The notes beneath the pieces were generated by a model that saw only the letters and a list, made by a program, of their open reading frames with translations, was not told where the DNA came from and ran no database searches. From the NCBI GenBank assembly GCA_018818425.1, contig JAHISB010000002.1, forward strand, positions 2,819 through 66,818: a stretch of DNA of 64,000 nt, in the 5' to 3' direction. The first letter of the stretch is position 1. Every line of letters begins with the position of its first letter. The position numbers and the translations under genes were made by a program. The DNA comes from Patescibacteria group bacterium (GTDB lineage Bacteria; Patescibacteriota; Patescibacteriia; UBA1558; UBA10009). Of the stretch, positions 1 to 38,142 are shown piece after piece.

Positions 1-59
1 CGCTTGAGGATTATCTTGAAATTAAAGAAAATAACATTGCCCTGCCCGATTTTGGAGTA

Positions 60-599
60 ATGGAATTAAAATCGCAGAGAATAAAGGCATCTTCAATGCT
101 AACCTTATTTACTAAAAGTCCAGATGGGATTACCAATGCTGAAATTAGGGAACGATTTGGTTATCCAGATCCTGAATACCCAAAATTGAAAATAATTCAT
201 CAAACTATTAATAATGGCAAAGACAATGCTATGGGCTTTCATTTCACCATAGATGAAAATAGCGATATGCTTTTAATCGCTAAGGGTGGTGAAACTTTTG
301 GTTATTATAGTCTTGATTTTTTAAAACAGAAAGCAGTTGAGAAAATTGGCAATGGTTTAATCCTTGTTTTAGCTGAAACAAAAAAACAAAAAGGTCACGA
401 ATTTTTTTATTATAAGGAAGCTTATATTCTTAAAGATATTGATCCTAAGAAATTTTTAGCACATTCAAAATATGATATTAGATTAGGAATTTACCATAGT
501 GGCAAGCTTGCTGGCACGCTTCATGACCATGGTTCAGCCTTTCGTATTACTCAAAAATCAATCCCTGATTTTTTTAGAATTAAAAGGAAAATACTTTAA
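60..599 (+). CDS. hypothetical protein; candidate type II restriction endonuclease partner of the adjacent methyltransferase
   Basis: 179 aa ORF with ATG at 60. Convergent with the MTase gene, and the two stop codons overlap (596-599). Possible D...ExK-like segment (IDEN...VLAETKK). AT-rich like the rest of the island. No confident family match by eye. Confidence 0.35.
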   Translation: MELKSQRIKASSMLTLFTKSPDGITNAEIRERFGYPDPEYPKLKIIHQTINNGKDNAMGFHFTIDENSDMLLIAKGGETFGYYSLDFLKQKAVEKIGNGLILVLAETKKQKGHEFFYYKEAYILKDIDPKKFLAHSKYDIRLGIYHSGKLAGTLHDHGSAFRITQKSIPDFFRIKRKIL

Positions 600-2470
600 T
601 TCTTTCTTAAAACTACAATACTCTCTTTATTCATAGTTTCTTCCAATTCACCAGCAATATTTGTCGGTGAGTTTTTTTTAGGCATTCTTTTGCCAGGAAT
701 ATTTCTGATAATTATATCTTCACAGGCCAAACCAATATTTTCTCCTAATTCTGCGATTATAAAATCGGTAGGTATCCTTACTTGTTTTACCATGCGGTTG
801 CCGATTACTAAACAGAAGTATTTATTCTTTTTTAATATTTTATGGGCTTGTTTTAAGCATTTATTTAAGTCAACGTAGAAACTAAGTACCTCCTTAGCTC
901 TTTTATCATCCTTTTTTCTAATTTGATCTATTGTTTGGTTTAAATAATCAGAATTTAGATTGTGCTTTAATTCTTTAACAGCTTTGCCGCCTAAAAGTAT
1001 ATTATCAACTTTTGAAGCCTCACTTTGATCTTTAAAAATATCAATCCATTGCGCTGAAAGCCTGGAAAATTGTCCATAGGCCACAGTTGTTCTACTGTCG
1101 CCATATGGCGGAGAAGTTAAAATAAAGTCAATAGAATTTTCTTTAATGCCATTATCTTTAGATGAGTCGCTAAAAATAATTTTAGTCCAAGTTTTTTTAT
1201 CAACATTTTTCTCAAATTCGCCCATAGCTTTAATATTGTTTTCAGTTTTCTTTTTGAATATTTCCAGAACATTAGGATTGTATTTTTCCAATACTTCTTT
1301 TTTAATTCTTACCAATTTAAACTCGCCATTCTTTGTATTAGAAGCCAGTCGTACTGTTTCACTAAATCCAACTAAAAAGAAATTCTGAATATTTTTATTT
1401 TTAATCTCTTTTATAGCTTTTTTAATTTTTGCTAATTCAATAATAACCTTATCTTTAAACCAGAAATCAATATTTAGAAATTCAGGTTTTTTAATCTGAT
1501 TTTTTTTAATTTTTCTTATCCTATCTAGTAACTTAAAATATTCATTCTGAAGTTTTGATGATGATATTTCAGTAGTTTTTGCTTTTGCTAAAAAAATTGC
1601 CAAAGGATTAAGATCTATGCCATAAGAGTTTCTGCCTAATAATCTGCTTTCTATTAGCGCTGTACCTGACCCACAGAAAATATCGCAAATTGCATCACCC
1701 TTTTTGCTGTAATTTTGTAAAAGCCGGCGTGCCACTTGTGGGATAAACATCGCCGGATATGTATGCAAACCATGCGTATATGATTTAGTTTTTTCACCGC
1801 GAAAATCCCATGAGTAGTCAATTCTGCGAGTGTATTTTTCATTGCTTGTTTTATCCTCTTCAATGTCTTTTTCTATATTTCTAATAATTTTCACCACAAC
1901 GCCCCTTACTTCAACTTCTTTTCTGTAAAAAGGAAACAAGGTAGGATTTGCCGGCTGTAGCCGAAATCTATCTTTTTCACGATATAATTTTTTTAAGGTG
2001 GCTTCATTATCATCAATTATAGCTACAACCATTTCACCATTATCAGCTGTCACTTGTTTTTTTAAAACAACAATATCACCATCAAAAATACCTTCATCAA
2101 TCATGCTGTTACCTTGGACTCTTAAAGCGTAGTGGTTGTGATAATTATGAAAATTATCTTTAGTTATGGTTATGGTTTCGTCTGGCGCTTCCACTGCTTC
2201 TATGGGCTGTCCGGCGGCAATAGTGCCAATTAGGGGAATTTCTATAGTATTATTTTGGTTTGTTTTTAGCTCTAAACCTCGTGATAGATGCTCATTTTTA
2301 ACCAAAAACCCTTTATCTATCAAAGCGTCAATATGCTGATATACCCCAGATAGGGCCTTCAGCTTAAAATACCTCTTTATTTCTTCAAAAGTAGGGGAGA
2401 TACCTTTCTTATTTATGTATTTTTTGATGTAATCGTAGATTTCCTTCTGTTTTTTAGTTAGGGTTGGCAT
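596..2470 (-). CDS. LexA-like repressor (HTH + S24 peptidase) fused to an amino (N6-adenine/N4-cytosine) DNA methyltransferase
   Basis: Continuous 624 aa ORF. N-terminal ~200 aa match LexA: winged HTH (LTKKQKEIYDYIKKYI...GISPTFEEI...HIDALIDKGFL), canonical cleavage site IAAGQPI, Ser in GNSM and Lys in ATLKKL. The C-terminal ~415 aa carry MTase motif X-I (HTYPAMFIPQVARRLL...DIFCGSGTALIE) and motif IV (ILTSPPYGD), i.e. alpha-like order with a TRD between them. ATG at 2470. Confidence 0.75.
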   Translation of the reverse strand: MPTLTKKQKEIYDYIKKYINKKGISPTFEEIKRYFKLKALSGVYQHIDALIDKGFLVKNEHLSRGLELKTNQNNTIEIPLIGTIAAGQPIEAVEAPDETITITKDNFHNYHNHYALRVQGNSMIDEGIFDGDIVVLKKQVTADNGEMVVAIIDDNEATLKKLYREKDRFRLQPANPTLFPFYRKEVEVRGVVVKIIRNIEKDIEEDKTSNEKYTRRIDYSWDFRGEKTKSYTHGLHTYPAMFIPQVARRLLQNYSKKGDAICDIFCGSGTALIESRLLGRNSYGIDLNPLAIFLAKAKTTEISSSKLQNEYFKLLDRIRKIKKNQIKKPEFLNIDFWFKDKVIIELAKIKKAIKEIKNKNIQNFFLVGFSETVRLASNTKNGEFKLVRIKKEVLEKYNPNVLEIFKKKTENNIKAMGEFEKNVDKKTWTKIIFSDSSKDNGIKENSIDFILTSPPYGDSRTTVAYGQFSRLSAQWIDIFKDQSEASKVDNILLGGKAVKELKHNLNSDYLNQTIDQIRKKDDKRAKEVLSFYVDLNKCLKQAHKILKKNKYFCLVIGNRMVKQVRIPTDFIIAELGENIGLACEDIIIRNIPGKRMPKKNSPTNIAGELEETMNKESIVVLRKN

Positions 2471-2477
2471 AAATGAT

Positions 2478-2505
2478 TTGACTTATTCTTTAAATAATTT
2501 ATACT
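2478..2505 (+). promoter_or_regulatory. sigma70-like promoter candidate (TTGACT-16-TATACT) upstream of the 2624 ORF
   Basis: -35 TTGACT at 2478-2483, 16 nt spacer, -10 TATACT at 2500-2505. It also lies in the upstream region of the divergent lexA-MTase gene. Confidence 0.3.
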
Positions 2506-2623
2506 ACTTATCAGTATACCGAAAATTTACTGAATTTTAAATAGGGGTTATCCACATTTAATAATCAAAATGATAGCAAAAATTTATGTCGGGAATATCA
2601 AATAGAGAGAGATTGAAAAAAAT

Positions 2624-3130
2624 ATGAATAAGAAATCATCGTCCAATGCTAAAAAAATACGAACAGCAAGACTTTCAGTATCTGTTGCAATTCAAGAAGC
2701 TCTAGAAGTTGGCAAAATATTAAAAAAACTTGGAGAAATTTTTGATACTCATCATGAAACTAATCTTAGTAAAATTAAGAATTGTAAAGCTCCTAGCAGT
2801 GAAATAAATATTTGTTTATCCGGCTATGAGCTTGGCCGAATTAATGGAGCTTTGCGTGATTATATAACACTAAGAATAGCAAATATTGTTGATTCACATC
2901 CGGCTTCTTTATCGTTAAAGGCATTTGATAATATAAATTTAGATAGTATTAGTAAGATTCCGCAAATAAAACAAATTTTGGATGCTAGAAATAATTGGAT
3001 CGGACATATTAATCCTAGATTTATTGGACCTGTTAATAAAGATATTTTGTACAGTAAGGAAGTTGTTAGTTTGCTTGAAACTCTTCAAATGTTAATATGT
3101 ACAGGTGCTATAAAGGAAAGAAAGAAGTAA
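2624..3130 (+). CDS. hypothetical protein, possible HEPN-domain protein
   Basis: 168 aa ORF. Contains an Rx4-6H-type motif (ARNNWIGH) in the C-terminal half. Sits in the defence island between the RM pair and HicB. Assignment is weak. Confidence 0.3.
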   Translation: MNKKSSSNAKKIRTARLSVSVAIQEALEVGKILKKLGEIFDTHHETNLSKIKNCKAPSSEINICLSGYELGRINGALRDYITLRIANIVDSHPASLSLKAFDNINLDSISKIPQIKQILDARNNWIGHINPRFIGPVNKDILYSKEVVSLLETLQMLICTGAIKERKK

Positions 3131-3241
3131 AAAATTTGCCGTTTTTGGAAATCTGTTTAGATTTCTTCGTATAACCTCTGCCAAAAAAACGCATTGACAT
3201 TATCAATTAATTGAAGTAATCTAAAATAGATAAGCAATATT

Positions 3242-3436
3242 ATGAAGTTATTAATTAATCTACAATACGATTTTGAATACCAGGGCTATGTTGCTGATTG
3301 CCTTTCTTTGCCAGGATGTATGTCTCAAGGGAAAACCGGAAACGAGGCCTTGAAAAATATCAAGGAAGCCATTAGCGGCTATGTAAAAGTTCTCAAGAAG
3401 AATCATCAAACTGCCCCTCCCATGGTTACAGATTGA
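3242..3436 (+). CDS. HicB-like antitoxin (UPF0150 family), apparently orphan
   Basis: 64 aa. YVADCLSLPGCMSQGKTGNEALKNIKEAISGY matches the HicB/UPF0150 consensus (YxAxxPxLPGCxSQGxTxEEALxNxKEAI). No HicA-sized ORF found on either side. Confidence 0.65.
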   Translation: MKLLINLQYDFEYQGYVADCLSLPGCMSQGKTGNEALKNIKEAISGYVKVLKKNHQTAPPMVTD

Positions 3437-3452
3437 GAGTAAAATAAAAATC

Positions 3453-3480
3453 AGGCATTATTGCCTATTTTTTGTTTATT
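3453..3480 (+). terminator. weak rho-independent terminator candidate
   Basis: AGGCA-TTATT-TGCCT hairpin (5 bp stem) followed by ATTTTTTGTTTATT. Confidence 0.3.
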
Positions 3481-3544
3481 TGCCTTTTGAATAAAAAAAT
3501 GATAAGGTGAAGTCAAAATTAATAATCTAATTAATCTCAAATCT

Positions 3545-4237
3545 ATGCAAGGTAAAATTCAAATTGTAGGAGGATTTATTATTGTTTTTCTGTTAGGGTT
3601 AGTTTTGGGAGGGGCAGCCGGCTTTTATTTTCAAGACAGCAGTCAAAAGTCAGCCGGCAATCAGAAAAGCGAGGTTATAGCGGAATCAGCGGCAGAAAAC
3701 AGCGCCCAATCTGTTTTGCCACAAGAAATTATCGCCAAGCAGCAGCCGGCCGTTACTACTGCCACCACTACGGAAAATATTTTGGCCAACGATTATTTTG
3801 CTTTACAGTATCCTCTGGAATGGGAGCAATCGCAGGCGCCCGAAGGCATTTCCGCCATTATTGTGAACAACCAGGAAGAAATTACCAACCCCGAAGCCCA
3901 AAAAATAAATTTCCGCACTTATTTTTCGGTTATTTACGATTCTCTGCAGGGCAGGGGGCTGGAAGATTTTGTTAATAACTATAAGGCAGAAATCACAAGA
4001 GCTTTTCCCGACGCTTCTTTTGTCAGCGAGGTAGTAAATCAGGTTAATAATCAGCCAGCTTATTTTTTAGAAGTCCAGCTAGACGACCATGATCTGTCTT
4101 TAAAAGTTTTCTTTGCTTTAATCCAGGGTCAGGAAGACGATATGTGGATTCTGACTTTTAACACCCAGGAGAGCAATTGGAGCTTATATCAAGAAATTTT
4201 TTCCCAGATTGTCAATTCTTTTGAGCTAAAAGGCTGA
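3545..4237 (+). CDS. membrane-anchored hypothetical protein
   Basis: 230 aa. N-terminal TM (IVGGFIIVFLLGLVLGGAAGFYF) followed by a Q/A/T-rich linker and a globular domain. No family recognised. Confidence 0.55.
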   Translation: MQGKIQIVGGFIIVFLLGLVLGGAAGFYFQDSSQKSAGNQKSEVIAESAAENSAQSVLPQEIIAKQQPAVTTATTTENILANDYFALQYPLEWEQSQAPEGISAIIVNNQEEITNPEAQKINFRTYFSVIYDSLQGRGLEDFVNNYKAEITRAFPDASFVSEVVNQVNNQPAYFLEVQLDDHDLSLKVFFALIQGQEDDMWILTFNTQESNWSLYQEIFSQIVNSFELKG

Positions 4238-4244
4238 TAGCTTT

Positions 4245-4994
4245 ATGTTATACCAGAGAACTAGAAATAAATTTGATCCCCAATCCAAACAGCCCTTTAA
4301 ACTGTCGCGCAGCAAGCTGGAGTTGTTTTTGGAATGCCCCAGATGTTTTTATTTAGATAGAAGACTAGGTGTAAATAAACCGCCTGGCTTTCCTTTTACG
4401 TTAAACAGCGCAGTTGATGCCTTGCTTAAAAAAGAATTTGATATTCACCGCGCTAAAGGCCAGCCCCATCCTTTAATGAAGCATTATAAAATTAAAGCGG
4501 TGCCGTTTACTCATGACGACTTAAATAAATGGCGGGAGAATTTTGTGGGCGTCCAGCACCATCATCTTAAAACCAATTTAATTATTTTTGGCGCGATTGA
4601 CGATGTTTGGATAAATGATAAAGATGAATTGATGGTGGTGGATTATAAAGCAACCAGCACCAGCAGTAGCATATCGTTAGATGACGAGTATCGGCAGGTT
4701 TTTAAGAGGCAGATGGAAATTTACCAGTGGCTGCTGCGCCGGAATAATCATCAGGTTTCTGATACTGGCTATTTTGTTTACTGCAACGGCCGCCGGGATA
4801 AACAAGCTTTCGACAGTAAGCTGGAGTTTGATGTGGAAATTATCTCTTACCAAGGCAGCGATAAGTGGGTGGAACAGACAATTCTTGATGCCCATGCTTG
4901 CTTAAAGTCAGATGACCTGCCAGAACCGGATGCAGATTGTGATTATTGCAATTACCGCCGGGCCGTCAAGGAGGTTATCAAAAATTTTAAATAG
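4245..4994 (+). CDS. PD-(D/E)xK nuclease, Cas4/RecB-like with Cys cluster (standalone)
   Basis: 249 aa. N-terminal Cys (LFLECPRCFYLD) and C-terminal Cys triad (CLKSD...DCDYCNY) typical of Cas4/AddB-type 4Fe-4S nucleases. DYK motif (MVVDYKATS). No CRISPR array or cas genes nearby. Confidence 0.6.
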   Translation: MLYQRTRNKFDPQSKQPFKLSRSKLELFLECPRCFYLDRRLGVNKPPGFPFTLNSAVDALLKKEFDIHRAKGQPHPLMKHYKIKAVPFTHDDLNKWRENFVGVQHHHLKTNLIIFGAIDDVWINDKDELMVVDYKATSTSSSISLDDEYRQVFKRQMEIYQWLLRRNNHQVSDTGYFVYCNGRRDKQAFDSKLEFDVEIISYQGSDKWVEQTILDAHACLKSDDLPEPDADCDYCNYRRAVKEVIKNFK

Positions 4995-4996
4995 TT

Positions 4997-6352
4997 ATGA
5001 ATTTAAGCTCCAGCAAAAAAACCATTCTTTACGATCAAAACGCCATTTATTACGGCTTCTCTATAGAAAAACTGATGGAAAGGGCGGGCCAGGGCATTGC
5101 TAAAATCATTTTAAAAAAATATGGCCGCCATAAAAAAATTGGCTTTTTTTGCGGCCCGGGCAATAACGGCGGCGACGGCTTTGCGGCTGCCAGGCATTTG
5201 TCAGCCAGCTGCCGGCCGGAGGTTTATTTAATTCCTTCAGCCGAAAAAATCAGAACCAAGGAGTCACAAAAAAATTGGAAATTGTTCAAGGGTCAAAAAC
5301 AGGATAATGTTAAAGCCAAAGATATTCCTGATAATTTTGATGCGGTTGTTGAGTGTTTGTTCGGCGCCGGCCTTTCCGGAAAGGTTAAAGAACCCTATGC
5401 CTTGGTCATCAAAAAATTGAATCAGCTTAAAGGCAAAAAAGTAACTATAGATCTGCCGGCGCCCGGCTTTAAGCCCCAGCTCTGCATCTCTTTAATGTTC
5501 CCTAAAAGCCCTCAAGCCGAGGCGGTGGATATTGGCTACCCTAAATGGCTGGCAGAAAAAATCGGCGTCGGCCAGATAAAAGTTTTGCATCGGCCACTGC
5601 CCGATTCTCACAAGGGCGACAACGGCAAATTATTGATAATCGGCGGCAGCAGGCAGTATCATGGCGCGCCGCTTTTAGCCGCCAAGGTTGCCAGTAAGAT
5701 TGTCGATCTGGTCTATTTTTCATCAATTCCGGAAAACAATGAATTAATTAAAAAAATGAAGTCAAAACTGTGTGAATTTATGGCTGTGCCGCGCGAGTCA
5801 GTGCTCAATCAAGCCGGCAAGGTTGATGCCGTTTTAATTGGACCGGGCTTGGGAGTCAGTCAGGAGTCAAAAGCCTTAGTCAACAATCTTTTAAAAAAAT
5901 ATCCGAAGAAAAAGTTTATTCTGGATGCAGATAGCTTAAGGGTCGTCGATAAAAAACTGCTCAACAAGAATTGTCTTGTCACCCCGCATCATCAGGAATT
6001 TAAAATATTATTCGGCCAATCAGCCTCAAAGCAATCAATCAGGCAAATGTCCAAAAAATATGGCTGCGTCATCGTCCTCAAAGGCCAAACAGATTTTGTA
6101 GCCAGTCCTCAAGAATTCAAAATTAACGAAACCGGCAATGCCGGTATGACCAAAGGCGGAACAGGCGATGTGCTGGCCGGGCTGATTGCCTCATTTGCCT
6201 GTAAAAATGATCTGTTTTTAGCTGCCTGCGCCGGGGTGTTTATCAACGGCCTGGCCGGCGATCGTTTATATAATAAAGTTGGTAATATTTATAATGCCTC
6301 CGACCTCATTAAAGAGATCCCTTTAGCCGTCAAATGGTCGCTTGACTTCTAA
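4997..6352 (+). CDS. nnr: bifunctional NAD(P)H-hydrate repair enzyme Nnr (epimerase + ADP-dependent dehydratase)
   Basis: 451 aa. YjeF-N motif GFFCGPGNNGGDGFAAARHL. C-terminal carbohydrate-kinase-like domain (LLIIGGSRQYHGAPLLAAKVA, GPGLG, GTGDVLAGLIA). Confidence 0.85.
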   Translation: MNLSSSKKTILYDQNAIYYGFSIEKLMERAGQGIAKIILKKYGRHKKIGFFCGPGNNGGDGFAAARHLSASCRPEVYLIPSAEKIRTKESQKNWKLFKGQKQDNVKAKDIPDNFDAVVECLFGAGLSGKVKEPYALVIKKLNQLKGKKVTIDLPAPGFKPQLCISLMFPKSPQAEAVDIGYPKWLAEKIGVGQIKVLHRPLPDSHKGDNGKLLIIGGSRQYHGAPLLAAKVASKIVDLVYFSSIPENNELIKKMKSKLCEFMAVPRESVLNQAGKVDAVLIGPGLGVSQESKALVNNLLKKYPKKKFILDADSLRVVDKKLLNKNCLVTPHHQEFKILFGQSASKQSIRQMSKKYGCVIVLKGQTDFVASPQEFKINETGNAGMTKGGTGDVLAGLIASFACKNDLFLAACAGVFINGLAGDRLYNKVGNIYNASDLIKEIPLAVKWSLDF

Positions 6353-7808: not shown

Positions 7809-9158
7809 ATGGCTAGTCAATCCAAGAACAAAAAAATTTGGCTGGTGACTGTGGATATGGGTTATGGTCATCAGCGGGCTACTTATCCTTTAAAGCACTT
7901 AGCTTACCGGGGATTAATCAGCGCCAATAACTATCAGGGTATTCCGTCTAAAGACAGGAAAGTTTGGCACGAACAGCGGAAATTTTACGAAGCGGTCTGC
8001 CGGTTTAAAAAAGTTCCGCTGGTCGGCAATTTAGCTTTTGAAGTTTTTGATCTTTTTCAGAGGATCCCTGAATTTTATCCCAAAAGAGATCTTTCGGGCA
8101 AAAGCATCCAGGTAATTTCTTCATTTAGATTAATTAAAGAAAAAAGCTTAGGCGAGCATTTAATTAATTTATTAAAAAAGAGGCCTCAATATCCATTGCT
8201 GACTTCATTTTTTTTAACTGCCTTTATGGCAGAAATTTTTAATTATCCCGGCGAAATTTATTGCATTATTTGCGATGCCGATATCAGCCGGGCCTGGGTT
8301 TCGGCCCTGCCTAAAAACAGCAAAATTAAATATTTTGCCCCCTGCCAGCGAGTGGTGGAAAGACTAAAACTTTACGGCGTGGCCGAAGACAGAATATTTT
8401 TAACCGGCTTTCCTCTGCCCAAAGAAAATATTGGCTCGGAACGGCTGCCCGTTCTTAAACAGGATTTAAAAAACAGGTTGGTTAATTTAGACCCCCAACG
8501 TTTATATTTGTCTAAGTATAAAGATACCCTTTGCAAGAATTTGTCTATTAAAAACTTTCCTAAAAAAGCTAATCATCCTTTAACCATAACTTTTGCGGTA
8601 GGCGGCGCCGGCGCTCAAAGAGAAATTGGCGCCCAGATTATTAAAGGTTTAAGTCAGGTGATTATTAAAAAACAAATAAGAATCAATCTCATTGCCGGCG
8701 TTCATCGCGATGTTAATAAATATTTTAAAGAGCAGATTCAAAAATTAAAGCTCCAAAGCCATTTAAATAAAGAAATCAGGATTTTATTCACTCAAAGTAA
8801 AATGGAATATTTTCAAAAGTTTAATGAGTGGCTAAGGACAACGGATATTTTATGGACCAAGCCGTCGGAACTTTCTTTTTACAGCGGTTTAGGCCTGCCT
8901 ATTGTGATGTCGCCGCCGATTGGCTCTCAAGAAGATTTTAATCGTAAATATTTAATTAATTTGGGCGCCGGCTTAGACCAGGAAGACCTAAAATATGTAG
9001 ATGAGTGGCTTTTTGATTGGATAAATTCCGGCCGCCTAGCCGAAGCTGCGGCCCAAGGTTTTTTGGAAGCCCCAAAGCTGGGAACGTTTAACATCGAAAA
9101 AATTTTGACTAAACGGACCATTAAAACCCGGGGAGTCAAGACGATTTCGCCGTATTAG
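7809..9158 (+). CDS. GT-B glycosyltransferase, MGDG synthase/UgtP (GT28)-like
   Basis: Track ORF begins at TTG 7737, overlapping the previous gene. In-frame ATG at 7809 gives MASQSKNKKIWLVTVDMGYGHQRA, the G-rich N-terminal motif of the MGDG-synthase family. C-terminal GT-B half (GLGLPIVMSPPIGSQEDFNRKYL). Confidence 0.5.
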   Translation: MASQSKNKKIWLVTVDMGYGHQRATYPLKHLAYRGLISANNYQGIPSKDRKVWHEQRKFYEAVCRFKKVPLVGNLAFEVFDLFQRIPEFYPKRDLSGKSIQVISSFRLIKEKSLGEHLINLLKKRPQYPLLTSFFLTAFMAEIFNYPGEIYCIICDADISRAWVSALPKNSKIKYFAPCQRVVERLKLYGVAEDRIFLTGFPLPKENIGSERLPVLKQDLKNRLVNLDPQRLYLSKYKDTLCKNLSIKNFPKKANHPLTITFAVGGAGAQREIGAQIIKGLSQVIIKKQIRINLIAGVHRDVNKYFKEQIQKLKLQSHLNKEIRILFTQSKMEYFQKFNEWLRTTDILWTKPSELSFYSGLGLPIVMSPPIGSQEDFNRKYLINLGAGLDQEDLKYVDEWLFDWINSGRLAEAAAQGFLEAPKLGTFNIEKILTKRTIKTRGVKTISPY

Positions 9159-9164
9159 TCGTGC

Positions 9165-9205
9165 CAGCCAAATGCTGGTCAGCCTCTGGCTGATATCGTG
9201 TTTAG
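9165..9205. repeat. copy of the GC-rich tandem-hairpin element family (CCAGCC-N-GCTGG TCAGCC-TCT-GGCTGA)
   Basis: gccagccaaatgctggtcagcctctggctgatatc aligns with copies at 34640-34672 and 35529-35591. Confidence 0.55.
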
Positions 9206-9235
9206 ATTAATAGTAAAGTTACAAGATATAAGATT

Positions 9236-10150
9236 ATGTGGTTTATAATCGCCATTATTTCAGTTTTTTTATTTGCTGTAACTGCTGTAGTGGATAAGTT
9301 TTTACTTTCTAAATCTCCATTAATCCCTATCAGTTACGCTTTCGTCATCTCTTTACTGGGCGCTTTAGCTTCAGTAGTTTTGGTGATTTTTGAGAAAGGA
9401 TTTTATTTTCCAGCCCAGCATTTTTTGGCTTTATTCATAGGCGGCGCTGGTTTTTATTTTGCTGTTTATTTTATGTATTTGGCAGTAGTCAAAAACGAAG
9501 TTTCTAGAGTCAACCCGATGATCAACAGTCTGGCGCCGGTAGTTATATATTTTTTAACTATGGTTTTAGCTGTCGAGCTAATCAGCGCCAGAAAATTATT
9601 AGGGGCAGCCGTAGTGATTAGCGGCGGCTATTTACTTTCGCAAGTTGGGTTAAAGAAAGCTCAACTCCATAAATCAGCTTTAGTTTTGATAATTTTAGCT
9701 GCCATTATGTTCGGAATATCGAATACTTTTAGTAAAATGGCCTATGATCAGCTGCCGTTTTTAACGTCCTTTATTTGGATTAGATGGCTGACTTTACTGA
9801 CTGCCTTAGTTTTTACTACTTTGATAGGCGGCTGGTCTAAAATATCTTTTAAAAGGAAAAAACAGCGTCAGACTCCAGCTAAAAAAAAGAATCCTTGGCC
9901 AGCTTTGGTTATTGGCCAGGTCAGCGGGGGCGCGGCCGTTATTTTGTTTCAGTATGCTATCAAACTCGGCAGCGTTACCATTGTCACAGCCCTCCAGGGT
10001 TTGCAATATTTTTTCTTGCTCCTGCTTACTATTCTTCTTTCCAAAAAATTTCCCCAGATTTTACAAGAAGCTATTGGCCCTGCCGTAATTAAAAAAAAGT
10101 TATTATATTGTTTAATTTTAGCTATTGGAGTAATTTTATTGCTGGTTTAA
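9236..10150 (+). CDS. DMT/EamA-like permease (10-TM membrane protein)
   Basis: 304 aa. Two ~5-TM halves separated by a basic loop (KRKKQRQTPAKKKN), typical of drug/metabolite transporter architecture. Confidence 0.45.
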   Translation: MWFIIAIISVFLFAVTAVVDKFLLSKSPLIPISYAFVISLLGALASVVLVIFEKGFYFPAQHFLALFIGGAGFYFAVYFMYLAVVKNEVSRVNPMINSLAPVVIYFLTMVLAVELISARKLLGAAVVISGGYLLSQVGLKKAQLHKSALVLIILAAIMFGISNTFSKMAYDQLPFLTSFIWIRWLTLLTALVFTTLIGGWSKISFKRKKQRQTPAKKKNPWPALVIGQVSGGAAVILFQYAIKLGSVTIVTALQGLQYFFLLLLTILLSKKFPQILQEAIGPAVIKKKLLYCLILAIGVILLLV

Positions 10151-35601: not shown

Positions 35602-38142
35602 ATGCCTCTCATTGCCGACATTTTTTTAAAAAGTTTTTCTACTTTGCTGGCCAATCCATGGGCCATCACTTTTCTAATAGCGATAATTTTTTTTATTGTT
35701 TTGGCAGCAATGGTCAATTTAATCAGAAAAAGTTTTGCCAAAGGCAGCCGTTTGCCGACTGCGCTGCAGCAGCAAATTTTATTGATTTCGGTGCCTAAAG
35801 AGTCATTGCGCGACAAAGAAAGAGCGGCTACCCCCCAAGATATCCAAGATGATATTGGAGCGGCCGAAAATTTATTTTCGGTTTTAGGAAGTTTGTCGGC
35901 CCAGCGGGGCGCCAGGCCATGGCTTTACGGCCGGACCGACCATTTTTCTTTTGAGATGGTGGCTCAAAATGGCCAGATCTTTTTTTATGTGGCAGCGCCT
36001 AATTATTTAAGCGATTCCTTGAAACAGCAGCTGTTAGCGGTTTATCCTCATGCGCATATTGAAGAAGTCAGCGATTATAACTTTTTTTCGCCGCAAGGCG
36101 CGGTTTTGGGCGCCTATTTAAAATTAGGCCGGGAGTTTATTTTTCCCATCAAGACTTTTAAAAAAATGGAAGGCAGCGATCCTTTGGAGGGCTTAGTTAA
36201 TCCTTTAAGCAAGGTGGCTAAGACAGACGGAGCGGCCATTCAATTTATTGTTCGCTCGGCTTATAAAAAGTGGCATCGCAAAGGCATGCGGGTAGCCCGC
36301 GAGATGCAGCAGGGCAAAGCTATGGCTATGGCTCTGCGCCAGGCGGGACTGGGCAATATTTTTGACAAATTTTTTGGTTTATTTAGTTTTATTTTCAGTT
36401 TTTTTAGAACTAAGCCCCAAGATGAGCGCAATTTAGACAAACTGGAAGAACAATACCGGCTTTCACCTATGGAAGAAGAGGCGGTTAAAGGCATAGAAGA
36501 AAAAACCAGCAGGGCCGGTTTTGATGTTAATGTCAGAATTGTAACTTCGGCAGTTAAGCGGGAGCAGGCCAAAAATTATTTAGATAATATTATTAATGCT
36601 TTCGGCCAGTATAATATTTATCAGTATGGCAATGGTTTTAAAAAAATCGCCAAAGTTAATATTGATCGCTTAGTTTCCGATTTTATCAGCCGCTCTTATC
36701 ATTCTAAATACCATTTATTGCTTAACAGCGAAGAAATGACCAGCTTGTGGCATTTGCCTCTGCCTTCCACCGGAGCTCCCAATATTCATTGGCTGGAAGC
36801 CAGAAAAGCCCAGCCGCCCGTCAACCTGCCACAGGAAGGGATTTTGCTGGGCGAGAATATTTACCGCGGAGTTACAACTCCTATAAGAATAAAAGAAGAA
36901 GACCGCCAAAGGCACGTTTATATTATCGGCAAATCGGGCACCGGCAAGTCGGTTCTGCAGGCCAATATGATTATTCAGGATATGCAGAACGGCGAAGGCG
37001 TTTGTGTAATCGATCCGCACGGCGATTTAGTGGAAGCGGTTTTAGAGCATGTGCCGCCGGAACGGGCCGAGGACGTGATTTTATTTGACCCGGCCGACTA
37101 TCAGCGGCCCATGGGCATTAATATGCTGGAGTTTCATAATCCCGAGCAAAAGACCTTTGTTATTAACGAAATGATAAAGATATTTGATAAGCTTTACGAC
37201 TTAAAAGCCACCGGCGGCCCCATGTTTGAGCAGTATATGCGCAACGCCATGCTGTTAATGATGGAAGATTCCCAGTCGGGCTCAACTTTGTTGGAAATTC
37301 CCAAAGTTTTGGCCGATGCCAATTTTAGAAGATACAAACTGTCCCGGTGCGTTAATCCGGTGGTTAAAGATTTTTGGGAAAAAGAAGCGGAAAAGGCCGG
37401 CGGCGAAGCCTCGCTGGCCAATATGGTGCCTTACATAACCAGCAAGCTGACCCCTTTTATCTCCAGCGATTTAATGAGGCCGATTATTGCCCAGCAGAAA
37501 AGTTCTTTTAATTTTCGGGAAGCTATGGACGGCCAGAAGATTATTTTAGTTAAATTATCCAAAGGCGCTATCGGCGAAATGAGCTGTAATTTGCTGGGCA
37601 TGGTTATTGTCGGCAAAATTTTAATGGCGGCCCTTTCCCGGGTAGATATCCCCCAGGAACGGCGCAGAAGTTTTTATTTATATATTGATGAGTTTCAGAA
37701 TTTTATCACCGATACCATTTCCGTTATTCTTTCCGAAGCCCGCAAGTATAAGCTTTGCCTGACCATTGCCCACCAGTACATCGGCCAGCTGGTCAAAAAT
37801 AACGATACCTCTATCCGCGACGCTGTAATGGGCAATGCCGGAACTATGATTGCTTTTAGAATCGGCCCTGATGATGCCGAAATAGTGGCTAAACAGCTGG
37901 CCCCGGTTTTTAATGAGTACGATGTAATTAATATTCCTAAATATAATGCTTATCTTAAGCTGTTAATTGATAATCAAAACCCGCCGGCTTTTAATATCAA
38001 GCCCCTGCCTCCCCAGCTAGGCGATAAAGCCATAGCCGCTAAAATCAGAGAGCTTTCCAGATTAAAATACGGCCGGGATCGAGAAATAGTTGAACGGGAA
38101 ATTTTAGAAAGAGTGAAGGCGGTTCAAAAGCCGGAAGTGTGA
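35602..38142 (+). CDS. TraD/VirD4 (type IV coupling protein)-like P-loop ATPase with N-terminal TM
   Basis: 846 aa. Walker A IIGKSGTGKS, Walker B-like LYIDEFQNF, TrwB/TraD-type C-terminal domain. The N-terminal ~400 aa is unassigned. Confidence 0.5.
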   Translation: MPLIADIFLKSFSTLLANPWAITFLIAIIFFIVLAAMVNLIRKSFAKGSRLPTALQQQILLISVPKESLRDKERAATPQDIQDDIGAAENLFSVLGSLSAQRGARPWLYGRTDHFSFEMVAQNGQIFFYVAAPNYLSDSLKQQLLAVYPHAHIEEVSDYNFFSPQGAVLGAYLKLGREFIFPIKTFKKMEGSDPLEGLVNPLSKVAKTDGAAIQFIVRSAYKKWHRKGMRVAREMQQGKAMAMALRQAGLGNIFDKFFGLFSFIFSFFRTKPQDERNLDKLEEQYRLSPMEEEAVKGIEEKTSRAGFDVNVRIVTSAVKREQAKNYLDNIINAFGQYNIYQYGNGFKKIAKVNIDRLVSDFISRSYHSKYHLLLNSEEMTSLWHLPLPSTGAPNIHWLEARKAQPPVNLPQEGILLGENIYRGVTTPIRIKEEDRQRHVYIIGKSGTGKSVLQANMIIQDMQNGEGVCVIDPHGDLVEAVLEHVPPERAEDVILFDPADYQRPMGINMLEFHNPEQKTFVINEMIKIFDKLYDLKATGGPMFEQYMRNAMLLMMEDSQSGSTLLEIPKVLADANFRRYKLSRCVNPVVKDFWEKEAEKAGGEASLANMVPYITSKLTPFISSDLMRPIIAQQKSSFNFREAMDGQKIILVKLSKGAIGEMSCNLLGMVIVGKILMAALSRVDIPQERRRSFYLYIDEFQNFITDTISVILSEARKYKLCLTIAHQYIGQLVKNNDTSIRDAVMGNAGTMIAFRIGPDDAEIVAKQLAPVFNEYDVINIPKYNAYLKLLIDNQNPPAFNIKPLPPQLGDKAIAAKIRELSRLKYGRDREIVEREILERVKAVQKPEV

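Follow-up and report, generated by a model that had tools for sequence, protein, structure and literature searches.

A complete LexA repressor fused to DNA methyltransferases in Type II restriction-modification cassettes of Patescibacteria

The cassette and its fusion gene

Positions 3 to 2556 of the window (the whole 64-kb stretch of contig JAHISB010000002.1 analyzed here) are a chromosomally integrated Type II restriction-modification (R-M) cassette of a Patescibacteria (candidate phyla radiation, CPR) bacterium, in which a DNA methyltransferase (MTase) gene with a LexA repressor at its N terminus converges with a restriction endonuclease (REase) gene. The fusion gene occupies 596–2470 of the minus strand as an open reading frame (ORF) of 624 codons with no internal stop, as an earlier note on this DNA had read it. 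Its product consists of a whole LexA, a linker of about 20 amino acids (aa) and a whole MTase; at 624 aa and with a complete MTase attached, it falls outside the roughly 200-aa format of a stand-alone LexA.

The N-terminal part was identified as LexA by profile and structure matches. The NCBIfam lexA equivalog TIGR00498 matches aa 1–199 with 181.8 bits against a cutoff of 110.95 (profile length, 203 positions), and between the first 200 aa and solved LexA structures the match is full-length (Thermotoga maritima 3k2z, 1.4e-31; Escherichia coli 1jhh). Within this part, aa 1–65 (2276–2470, minus strand) form the winged helix-turn-helix (HTH) DNA-binding domain with the recognition helix ALSGVYQHIDAL (Pfam PF01726, LexA_DNA_bind, 48.9 bits), and aa 79–193 (1892–2236, minus strand) form the Peptidase S24 cleavage and dimerization domain (PF00717, 104.9 bits). 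The module is thus a complete LexA with its own HTH and not a generic S24 peptidase. The Ala86-Gly87 autocleavage site (2210–2215, minus strand), conserved in all fusions aligned, lies within IAAGQPI (aa 84–90), and the catalytic dyad of the S24 domain is made up of Ser122 (codon 2105–2107, minus strand, in GNSM, aa 120–123) and Lys160 (codon 1991–1993, minus strand, in ATLKKL, aa 157–162). The linker (aa ~199–219; 1814–1876, minus strand) runs from the end of LexA to the start of the MTase and is charged and poorly conserved (conservation 0.56), with residues 199–210 below a predicted local distance difference test (pLDDT) score of 50 in an AlphaFold2 (AF2) model.

The C-terminal part is a complete Type II amino-MTase domain (aa 216–623; 602–1825, minus strand), for which PADLOC MTase_II was the best Type II MTase profile (459.7 bits; profile positions 20–442 of 446). 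Pfam N6_N4_Mtase matches the ORF in two permuted stretches, and motif I (FCGSG, aa 265–269; 1664–1678, minus strand) precedes motif IV (SPPY, aa 453–456; 1103–1114, minus strand), the order of alpha-like enzymes. Because unfused relatives of the MTase start 8–15 residues before the WDFxGxxTKxYTH block, the LexA/MTase junction falls exactly at the domain borders. A Foldseek search with the AF2 model returned LexA and generic Rossmann MTases only. The reading of the earlier note, a LexA with intact cleavage residues followed by a bona fide amino-MTase, was upheld in every part that sequence analysis can reach, including the placement of its LexA motifs and of HTYPAMFIPQ (236–245), DIFCGSGT (263–270) and TSPPY (452–456).

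The convergent gene (3–599, plus strand) encodes the C-terminal ~198 codons of an MvaI/BcnI-family Type II REase. Its frame is open from base 3 and its N terminus lies beyond the window edge. The earlier note had taken it for a 179-aa ORF beginning at base 60, a start that does not hold: the frame remains open to base 3, and a conserved segment, LPDFGVMELK, which aligns with APDFHDIEIK of R.MvaI, begins upstream of that ATG. Pfam MvaI_BcnI (PF15515) matches with 92.6 bits over profile positions 47–226 of 227, PADLOC REase_II also matches, and among solved structures R.MvaI (2oa9, 4.5e-24) was the best match and R.BcnI (2e-11) a more distant one. With the MvaI system (R.MvaI 2oa9, 2oaa) the cassette shares this homologous REase, the adjacent genes and an SPPY motif of the kind typical of N4-cytosine enzymes. 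The MTase is probably a CCWGG-type, N4-cytosine enzyme; the sole hints to this are the SPPY motif and a JGI annotation of one homologue as a cytosine-N4-specific MTase. We know of no LexA module in M.MvaI. The two genes share the TTAA at 596–599, so that their stop codons physically overlap, as the earlier note had described; the overlap is 4 nt, and no terminator-like site was found in positions 1–3300 of the window.

A modular family across Patescibacteria

A survey for the same fusion in other genomes, which the earlier note had proposed, showed it to be widespread. In a word-indexed search of 5.8 billion proteins, more than 120 cluster representatives (619–648 aa) matched 100% of the query at 69–87% identity and carried the same four Pfam domains. 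These clusters come from NCBI, JGI, ENA and Logan assemblies of Patescibacteria, and the NCBI name of the homologues is "transcriptional repressor LexA." One scan of GTDB species genomes added 49 fusion loci, ~66–71% identical to the window protein, from more than 12 CPR lineages: Wolfe-, Staskawicz-, Levy-, Roizman-, Gottesman-, Kerfeld-, Nomura-, Vogel-, Campbell-, Uhr-, Zambryski- and Peregrinibacteria, and Paceibacterota (loci and proteins are cited below by L and P numbers). Some metagenome-assembled genomes (MAGs) carry labels other than Patescibacteria (Omnitrophota, "Gammaproteobacteria," archaea), perhaps as a result of binning or labeling. In the same scan, MTase and REase pairs without the fusion were limited to a DPANN archaeon (L050) and a MAG of Bacilli (L051).

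This breadth bears on the most mundane explanation of the fusion, namely, that separate lexA and MTase genes were merged by a frameshift, an overlooked stop codon or a chimeric assembly. The ORF is uninterrupted, the linker length is conserved among the fusions, and the same junction recurs in more than 120 independent protein clusters from four assembly sources and in 49 genome loci, which excludes a frameshift or chimera. No support for such an artifact was found; what can be set beside it are two disrupted copies, one at L044 (2906–4723), without LexA residues ~42–73 and with its MTase in two frames, and one at L045 (4001–5867), whose MTase part also aligns in two frames. These copies indicate that cassettes do decay. 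We regard the probability of an artifact as negligible.

In an alignment of 120 fusions, Ala86-Gly87, Ser122, Lys160, FCGSG and SPPY are invariant. Identity is lowest in the winged HTH (0.36–0.53), higher in the S24 domain (0.75–0.89) and ranges from 0.46 to 0.95 in the MTase. The same Ala-Gly, Ser and Lys residues are kept in 61 of 61 more distant long representatives (below), so the cleavage machinery, which the earlier note had called intact, is under strong purifying selection.

The LexA module is also found with other kinds of MTase. A HMMER search with the module alone (aa 1–205) against 1.84 billion representatives gave 444 matches at E<=1e-30, and among the best 150 of these were 61 long proteins (269–890 aa) with an N-terminal LexA, the named ones from Patescibacteria, including Nealsonbacteria and an ACD bin. 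All 53 of the long proteins that were run through Pfam carry LexA_DNA_bind and Peptidase_S24, followed by N6_N4_Mtase (31 proteins), Eco57I (7), N6_Mtase (5), MethyltransfD12 (5) or a C5 DNA_methylase (3); no partner family other than MTases was detected in this set, a few short or truncated C-terminal extensions being without a match. By these profile assignments, the module has partners in no fewer than four unrelated DNA-MTase families (N6_N4, C5, D12/Dam and N6/Eco57I). Fusions to C5 (P0122), gamma-N6 (P0137) and Dam-type (P0133) enzymes have the same layout, with a convergent downstream gene that overlaps or abuts the MTase gene. The 90%-identity cluster of P0133, a 512-aa LexA::Dam-type protein, also holds 338-aa "DNA adenine methylase" proteins from Patescibacteria and Nealsonbacteria; they stem either from alternative gene calls or from a very recent loss or gain of the LexA module.

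The REase partner varies too. A convergent REase is present in every locus that reaches far enough past the MTase gene (~40 loci), and the stop codons overlap in 40 of 40 loci, by 4 nt in 35 of them and by 8 or 9 nt in 5. The REase is much more divergent than the MTase, falling into groups with 82–100% and 33–38% identity to the enzyme of L001, while the MTase is still 70–77% identical across loci whose MvaI-like REase groups share only 33–38%. At L029, a BsaWI-family REase (3350–4105, minus strand) stands in place of the MvaI/BcnI enzyme with the 4-nt stop overlap kept, and the LexA::MTase there is of the same type (MTase part 73–76% identical).

Promoter, operator and host LexA

A promoter scan placed a putative fusion-gene promoter at 2513–2541 of the minus strand, with a −35 element TTTAAA (2541–2536), a 17-nt spacer and a −10 element TATACT (2518–2513), which reads TTTAAA(−35)-ATTCAGTAAATTTTCGG-TATACT(−10). 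The relatives L062, L072–L087 and L085 share this layout. The spacer is filled by a putative LexA operator (2517–2534, minus strand), a direct repeat with an 11-bp period, TTCAGTA-aatt-TTCGGTA, that overlaps the −10. In the main subfamily the upstream block is almost invariant, TGTGGATAAC-N5-TTGTATAC-WTTCTAWTTATTTTCTATAAT, and comprises the −35, a 17-nt spacer with an 11-bp-period TTCTA...TTCTA repeat, the −10 and the ATG 7 nt later; the remaining subfamilies have the same geometry with the repeat units TTCGG, ATCGG, TTTCGAT and GTTC. Because the start codon of the main subfamily stands only ~7 nt past TATAAT (e.g., L001 9974–10003), leaderless mRNAs are implied for most fusion genes; the window copy has a ~40-nt leader.

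The earlier note had suggested looking for a palindromic LexA box in 2471–2623. No conserved one is present there, and the conserved element is instead the direct repeat. Several short, AT-rich inverted repeats, among them TCAGTA-N11-TACTGA and TATACT-N7-AGTATA, were considered and set aside, as the closest relatives (L085, L076 and L072) do not share them. LexA has repeatedly evolved direct-repeat operators, for example, GTTC-N7-GTTC, with Patescibacteria among the cases (PMC8565304; PMC7739468).

Stand-alone CPR lexA genes share the promoter architecture of the fusions (TTCGG repeats at L052, TTTCAAA repeats at L057–61), and the host lexA promoter of L043 reads TGTGGATAAG-N5-TTGTAGAC-CTTCTATTTTCCTTCTATAAT; the fusion therefore appears to have retained the promoter and operator of lexA. 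The recognition helix and the repeat unit co-vary across fused and stand-alone genes and across MTase classes. Helices of the form STAHYY, STSHYY, STAHFH or STVHFH go with TTCTA, ST[IV]H[EQ]H or ATVHQH with TTCGG, GSVQRY (Bacteriovorax) with TTACGCA, and ALSGVYQH, the form in the window, with TTCWGT...TTCGGT. The recognition helix of the C5 fusion P0122 is identical to that of the window. The window protein is one member of a modular family in which a promoter, operator and LexA unit is joined to varied MTases.

A metagenome-wide exact search for the window-type operator, made with a pattern that included part of the −10 and was thereby biased toward similar promoters, gave 21 matches. Twelve of them are promoters of LexA::MTase genes with an ALSG[VI]YQH helix, belonging to three MTase classes (ten C5 fusions, one window-type at L085 and one different 599-aa N6_N4-type at L076). 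Five further matches represent a single conserved GntR/ABC-transporter intergenic region of a non-CPR organism and were judged coincidental. An exact copy of the operator at L080 (1954–1974) and L088 (1219–1239) precedes a NOV_C/DUF3883 (restriction-endonuclease-like) ORF of 255 aa by ~300 nt and may mark an additional target of this LexA specificity class. Within the window, no second exact copy (0 mismatches) occurs, and none beyond chance was found as a host SOS box. The lexA-type promoter and the putative operator in front of the gene lend support to an SOS-sensitive autorepression of the fusion, as the earlier note had proposed.

A second conserved element stands in front of this promoter. 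A perfect DnaA-box-like 9-mer, TGTGGATAA(C), lies 6 nt upstream of the −35 (2548–2556, minus strand) and is the only copy in the 64 kb. With at most one mismatch, the 9-mer is present in 37 of 45 fusion promoters, compared with 5% of shuffles, occasionally inverted; fused and stand-alone genes alike have it 5–7 nt before the −35 (L001–L048, L062, L065, L068, L043 at 5040–5060, and L058). It may represent a replication-linked input through DnaA.

The relation of the fusion to the LexA of the host can be seen at L043, the one locus at which a fusion and a stand-alone lexA were shown to co-occur. Here, 1.8 kb beyond the cassette (fusion, REase and tRNA-Ser), lies an ordinary lexA that encodes 196 aa and has an operator of the same type as the fusion; both promoters carry a common TTCTAT-N5-TTCTAT repeat. 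A search with the L043 LexA returned a dense orthologous group of 196-aa stand-alone CPR LexAs at 70–98% identity. The fusion modules are 55–63% identical to this group, none exceeding ~63%. Given the separate lexA beside the cassette and this distance, the fusion module is a paralogue that coexists with the housekeeping LexA, at least in the L043 lineage. Where their specificities match, as the shared repeat at L043 suggests, cross-regulation of fusion and host LexA is plausible.

One could instead take the fusion to be the actual or co-equal SOS repressor of the cell, the R-M cassette having captured the lexA function as an addiction device or regulon plug-in with the MTase riding along. The equivalog score and the NCBI name would fit this idea, as would the repeat common to the two L043 promoters. 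It is opposed by the separate host lexA outside the cassette at L043 and by the well-populated stand-alone group to which the fusion modules are so distantly related. The flanks of the cassette also differ between genomes, as expected of a mobile element, and one genome carries two fusion copies; moreover, the LexA promoters matched by the window-type operator were those of fusions, with no stand-alone lexA or recA promoter among them. We therefore consider it quite improbable that the fusion has replaced or joined the cellular SOS repressor.

Beyond the MTase promoter, the upstream sequences of different genomes are unrelated, which fits a mobile cassette. What precedes the REase gene, a region that for the window copy lies left of base 1, varies as well. 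In about half of the cassettes (17 loci), a 73-aa HTH_3 "C" gene lies upstream of the REase gene, preceded by conserved C-box-like repeats (L001 12788–12910, with equivalents in L003–L049 and L068). The repeats come in the variants ATAACAAYTTGGAATATAACACAACGGAATACTAT and ATCCCATTTTGGGATTATACCATAAAAGGATATAT, the former being common to N4-type and Dam-type cassettes, and the Dam-type cassette L068 has a C gene. This arrangement resembles C-protein R-M systems (PvuII, PMC2175313; Esp1396I), in which an HTH_3 C gene and C-box repeats also stand upstream of the REase gene. A further likeness is that the MTase and C-REase units converge and that REase expression would be delayed relative to that of the MTase. 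In Esp1396I, the C protein also represses the MTase promoter, a role that in the present cassettes seems to have passed to the LexA module on the MTase. In the variants without a C gene (L005, L006, L010, L011, L017, L021, L023, L037 and L043, e.g., L043 3333–3422), the REase gene follows ~40–60 nt downstream of a co-oriented tRNA-Ser (anticodons TGA, GGA and GCT) with the conserved spacer CCAGATGTCCAAGTTYGAACC..AAAATAAGG. An extra partial tRNA 3′ fragment is present at L005, L017 and L037. This looks like either integration at tRNA-Ser or an REase gene driven by the tRNA promoter.

Several cassettes lie in defense or toxin-antitoxin neighborhoods, including the flanks of L065 and L066. AbiEii, HicA, NYN and SNase genes are near the cassette of L065, and a CD-NTase/SMODS gene (9062–9940) is divergent from the fusion at L001. 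A phage origin was considered and rejected, as the viral contigs searched held no relatives. The window itself is an ordinary piece of CPR chromosome (DnaK/J, DnaX, RecJ, MreB, AckA and RseP). The intergenic region of the fusion promoter also holds a promoter-like TTGACT-16-TATACT (2478–2505, plus strand). The divergent 168-aa ORF (2624–3130, plus strand) had no Pfam, NCBIfam or PADLOC match; beyond it are a HicB-like antitoxin fragment (3242–3436) and a PD-(D/E)XK nuclease (4245–4994). An 846-aa VirD4/TrwB-like type IV coupling-protein ATPase (35602–38142, plus strand) stands in an otherwise housekeeping stretch. The rarest 5-mers of the window are CTCAG/CTGAG (observed/expected 0.23) and AGGCT/AGCCT (0.36), an under-representation that suggests past pressure from other restriction systems.

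A proposed SOS-gated control of modification and its meaning

On balance, we favor, with moderate confidence, the reading that the fusion acts as an SOS-gated autorepressor of the MTase gene, a Type II analogue of restriction alleviation. In this proposal, the fusion would dimerize through its S24 domain and bind TTCAGTA-N4-TTCGGTA between the −35 and −10, repressing its own synthesis and keeping the MTase at a low set-point. Damage to the DNA, which includes breaks that the endonuclease of the cassette introduces at unmethylated sites, would generate RecA filaments on single-stranded DNA, which would stimulate autocleavage at Ala86-Gly87 and release the DNA-binding domain. The MTase promoter would then open and the MTase rise. 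Since the two genes converge with overlapping stop codons and no terminator, more MTase transcription should also run into the REase gene. In sum, the balance would tip for a time from restriction toward modification, giving a feedback on autoimmunity. The purpose proposed here, to relieve self-restriction at unmodified sites after damage or recombination, is shared with Type I restriction alleviation, in which ClpXP degrades HsdR (PMC4231737, PMC11109961). The means differ: in the Type I case the REase subunit undergoes post-translational proteolysis, whereas here the MTase would be induced, and the REase possibly interfered with, through LexA cleavage induced by activated RecA (RecA*).

The closest precedents are M.SsoII, M.Ecl18kI and M.EcoRII (PMC3978073, PMC2760811, PMC12707154), in which a DNA-binding domain is likewise fused N-terminally to an R-M MTase via a flexible linker, and an operator in the MTase promoter mediates autogenous repression, a parallel drawn for the window from its sequence. 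Their fused domains are HTHs of ~70 aa that sit on C5 MTases and bring neither a protease nor an input for external signals. In the present family, the fused part is instead a LexA of 200 aa whose S24 autoprotease and cleavage site are intact; it occurs on at least four MTase families (an amino-MTase in the window), and the genes converge, in contrast to the divergent or overlapping-promoter layouts of the precedents. The family scans of the fusion gave no sign of homology to the N-terminal region of SsoII.

These precedents make it conceivable that the LexA module serves as a dimeric autorepressor and nothing else, with an SsoII-like set-point, cleavage being vestigial or uncoupled from RecA* and no SOS input reaching the gene. 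Repressor domains fused to MTases are an established solution, an operator between the −35 and −10 fits simple autorepression, and no host SOS genes were found with the window-type operator. Against this stands the conservation of the cleavage residues: Ala-Gly, Ser and Lys are invariant in 181 fusions with at least four MTase classes, although the DNA-binding domain has drifted to 36–53% identity. An HTH of 70 aa would moreover suffice for such a task, and LexA-like proteins that do not cleave usually lose the Ala-Gly, Ser and Lys residues. We consider autorepression without SOS input unlikely.

A different outcome of cleavage would be a suicide or abortive-infection switch, in which SOS cleavage destabilizes the MTase and the endonuclease then kills the damaged or infected cell. 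In E. coli, cleaved LexA fragments are degraded by proteases; the N-terminal fragment of the fusion would end in ...IAA after cleavage, and the cassettes of L001 and L065 are in defense islands. Yet cleavage would remove only the 86-aa DNA-binding domain and leave the MTase on a folded S24 domain, the promoter would be derepressed at the same time, and the protein bears no sequence mark for degradation of the portion made up of the C-terminal domain (CTD) and the MTase. Such a switch is therefore very improbable.

The SOS-gated autorepressor must itself be weighed against several points. Operator binding, dimerization, RecA*-stimulated cleavage and the activity of the cleaved CTD-MTase are steps that we infer. 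More MTase during phage-triggered SOS could be counter-productive for defense. The 64 kb of the window hold no recA or uvr genes at which linkage to a host SOS regulon could be read, and among the 21 metagenome matches of the window-type operator no recA or stand-alone lexA promoter was found, in a search subject to the bias described above. The covariation of helix and operator is partly confounded by co-inheritance and phylogeny. The AF2 model is mediocre (mean pLDDT 65.7) and gives neither the inter-domain geometry nor whether the MTase obstructs dimerization or RecA docking. Finally, avoidance of CCWGG and CCSGG is absent from the window (observed/expected 0.87 and 0.96), a result that is uninformative on specificity.

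With the LexA family (TIGR00498) and the related lambda CI, UmuD, HdiR and UmuDAb (PMC8565304), the module shares the winged HTH and S24 domains, the Ala-Gly site, the Ser/Lys dyad and, as far as can be read from the DNA, an autoregulated promoter with a direct-repeat operator as in some LexA clades. It differs in the 400-aa C-terminal DNA-MTase, in its residence in a mobile R-M cassette, in its coexistence with a stand-alone LexA at L043 and in that no DNA-repair regulon has been linked to it so far. In the open full text to which our literature search extended (REBASE, subscription literature and Sanchez-Osuna et al. 2017, Environ Microbiol 19:3465, lay outside its scope), nothing relevant to a LexA::MTase fusion was found. 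A 2025 review of R-M systems (PMC12707154) covers fused MTase repressors and C proteins and never LexA, and a 2021 survey of S24-family regulators lists LexA, CI, C2, UmuD, HdiR and UmuDAb with no MTase fusions. The LexA::MTase family is thus seemingly undescribed, which agrees with what the earlier note had said of the fusion; its scope is wider than the note had supposed, a large modular family with several MTase classes and not a single oddity. Repressors fused to R-M MTases have precedents; the novelty is that a whole LexA, a sensor of DNA damage, takes this place and is used modularly across a family.

How Type II R-M systems avoid autoimmunity after damage, repair synthesis and recombination is an open question, and the only systems with a known proteolytic solution are those of Type I. 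An MTase with a canonical DNA-damage sensor as its own repressor domain is a concrete candidate mechanism. This large family is found mostly in Patescibacteria, whose defense depends heavily on R-M, and the annotation "transcriptional repressor LexA" can mislead the reconstruction of SOS regulons and of lexA phylogeny in CPR bacteria. The LexA-operator pairs, which have diversified in nature, would in addition be a resource for orthogonal, damage-inducible regulators. More broadly, and tentatively, we suggest that LexA::DNA-MTase fusions could be a general and hitherto unrecognized form of SOS-gated control of R-M systems, in which (i) RecA*-induced cleavage would read DNA breaks, self-inflicted or otherwise, (ii) modification would be boosted and (iii) restriction would be damped by the obligatory convergent transcription; LexA-operator classes, which unrelated MTases share, may then mark out groups of incompatibility or cross-regulation, both between R-M systems and with the SOS regulon of the host.

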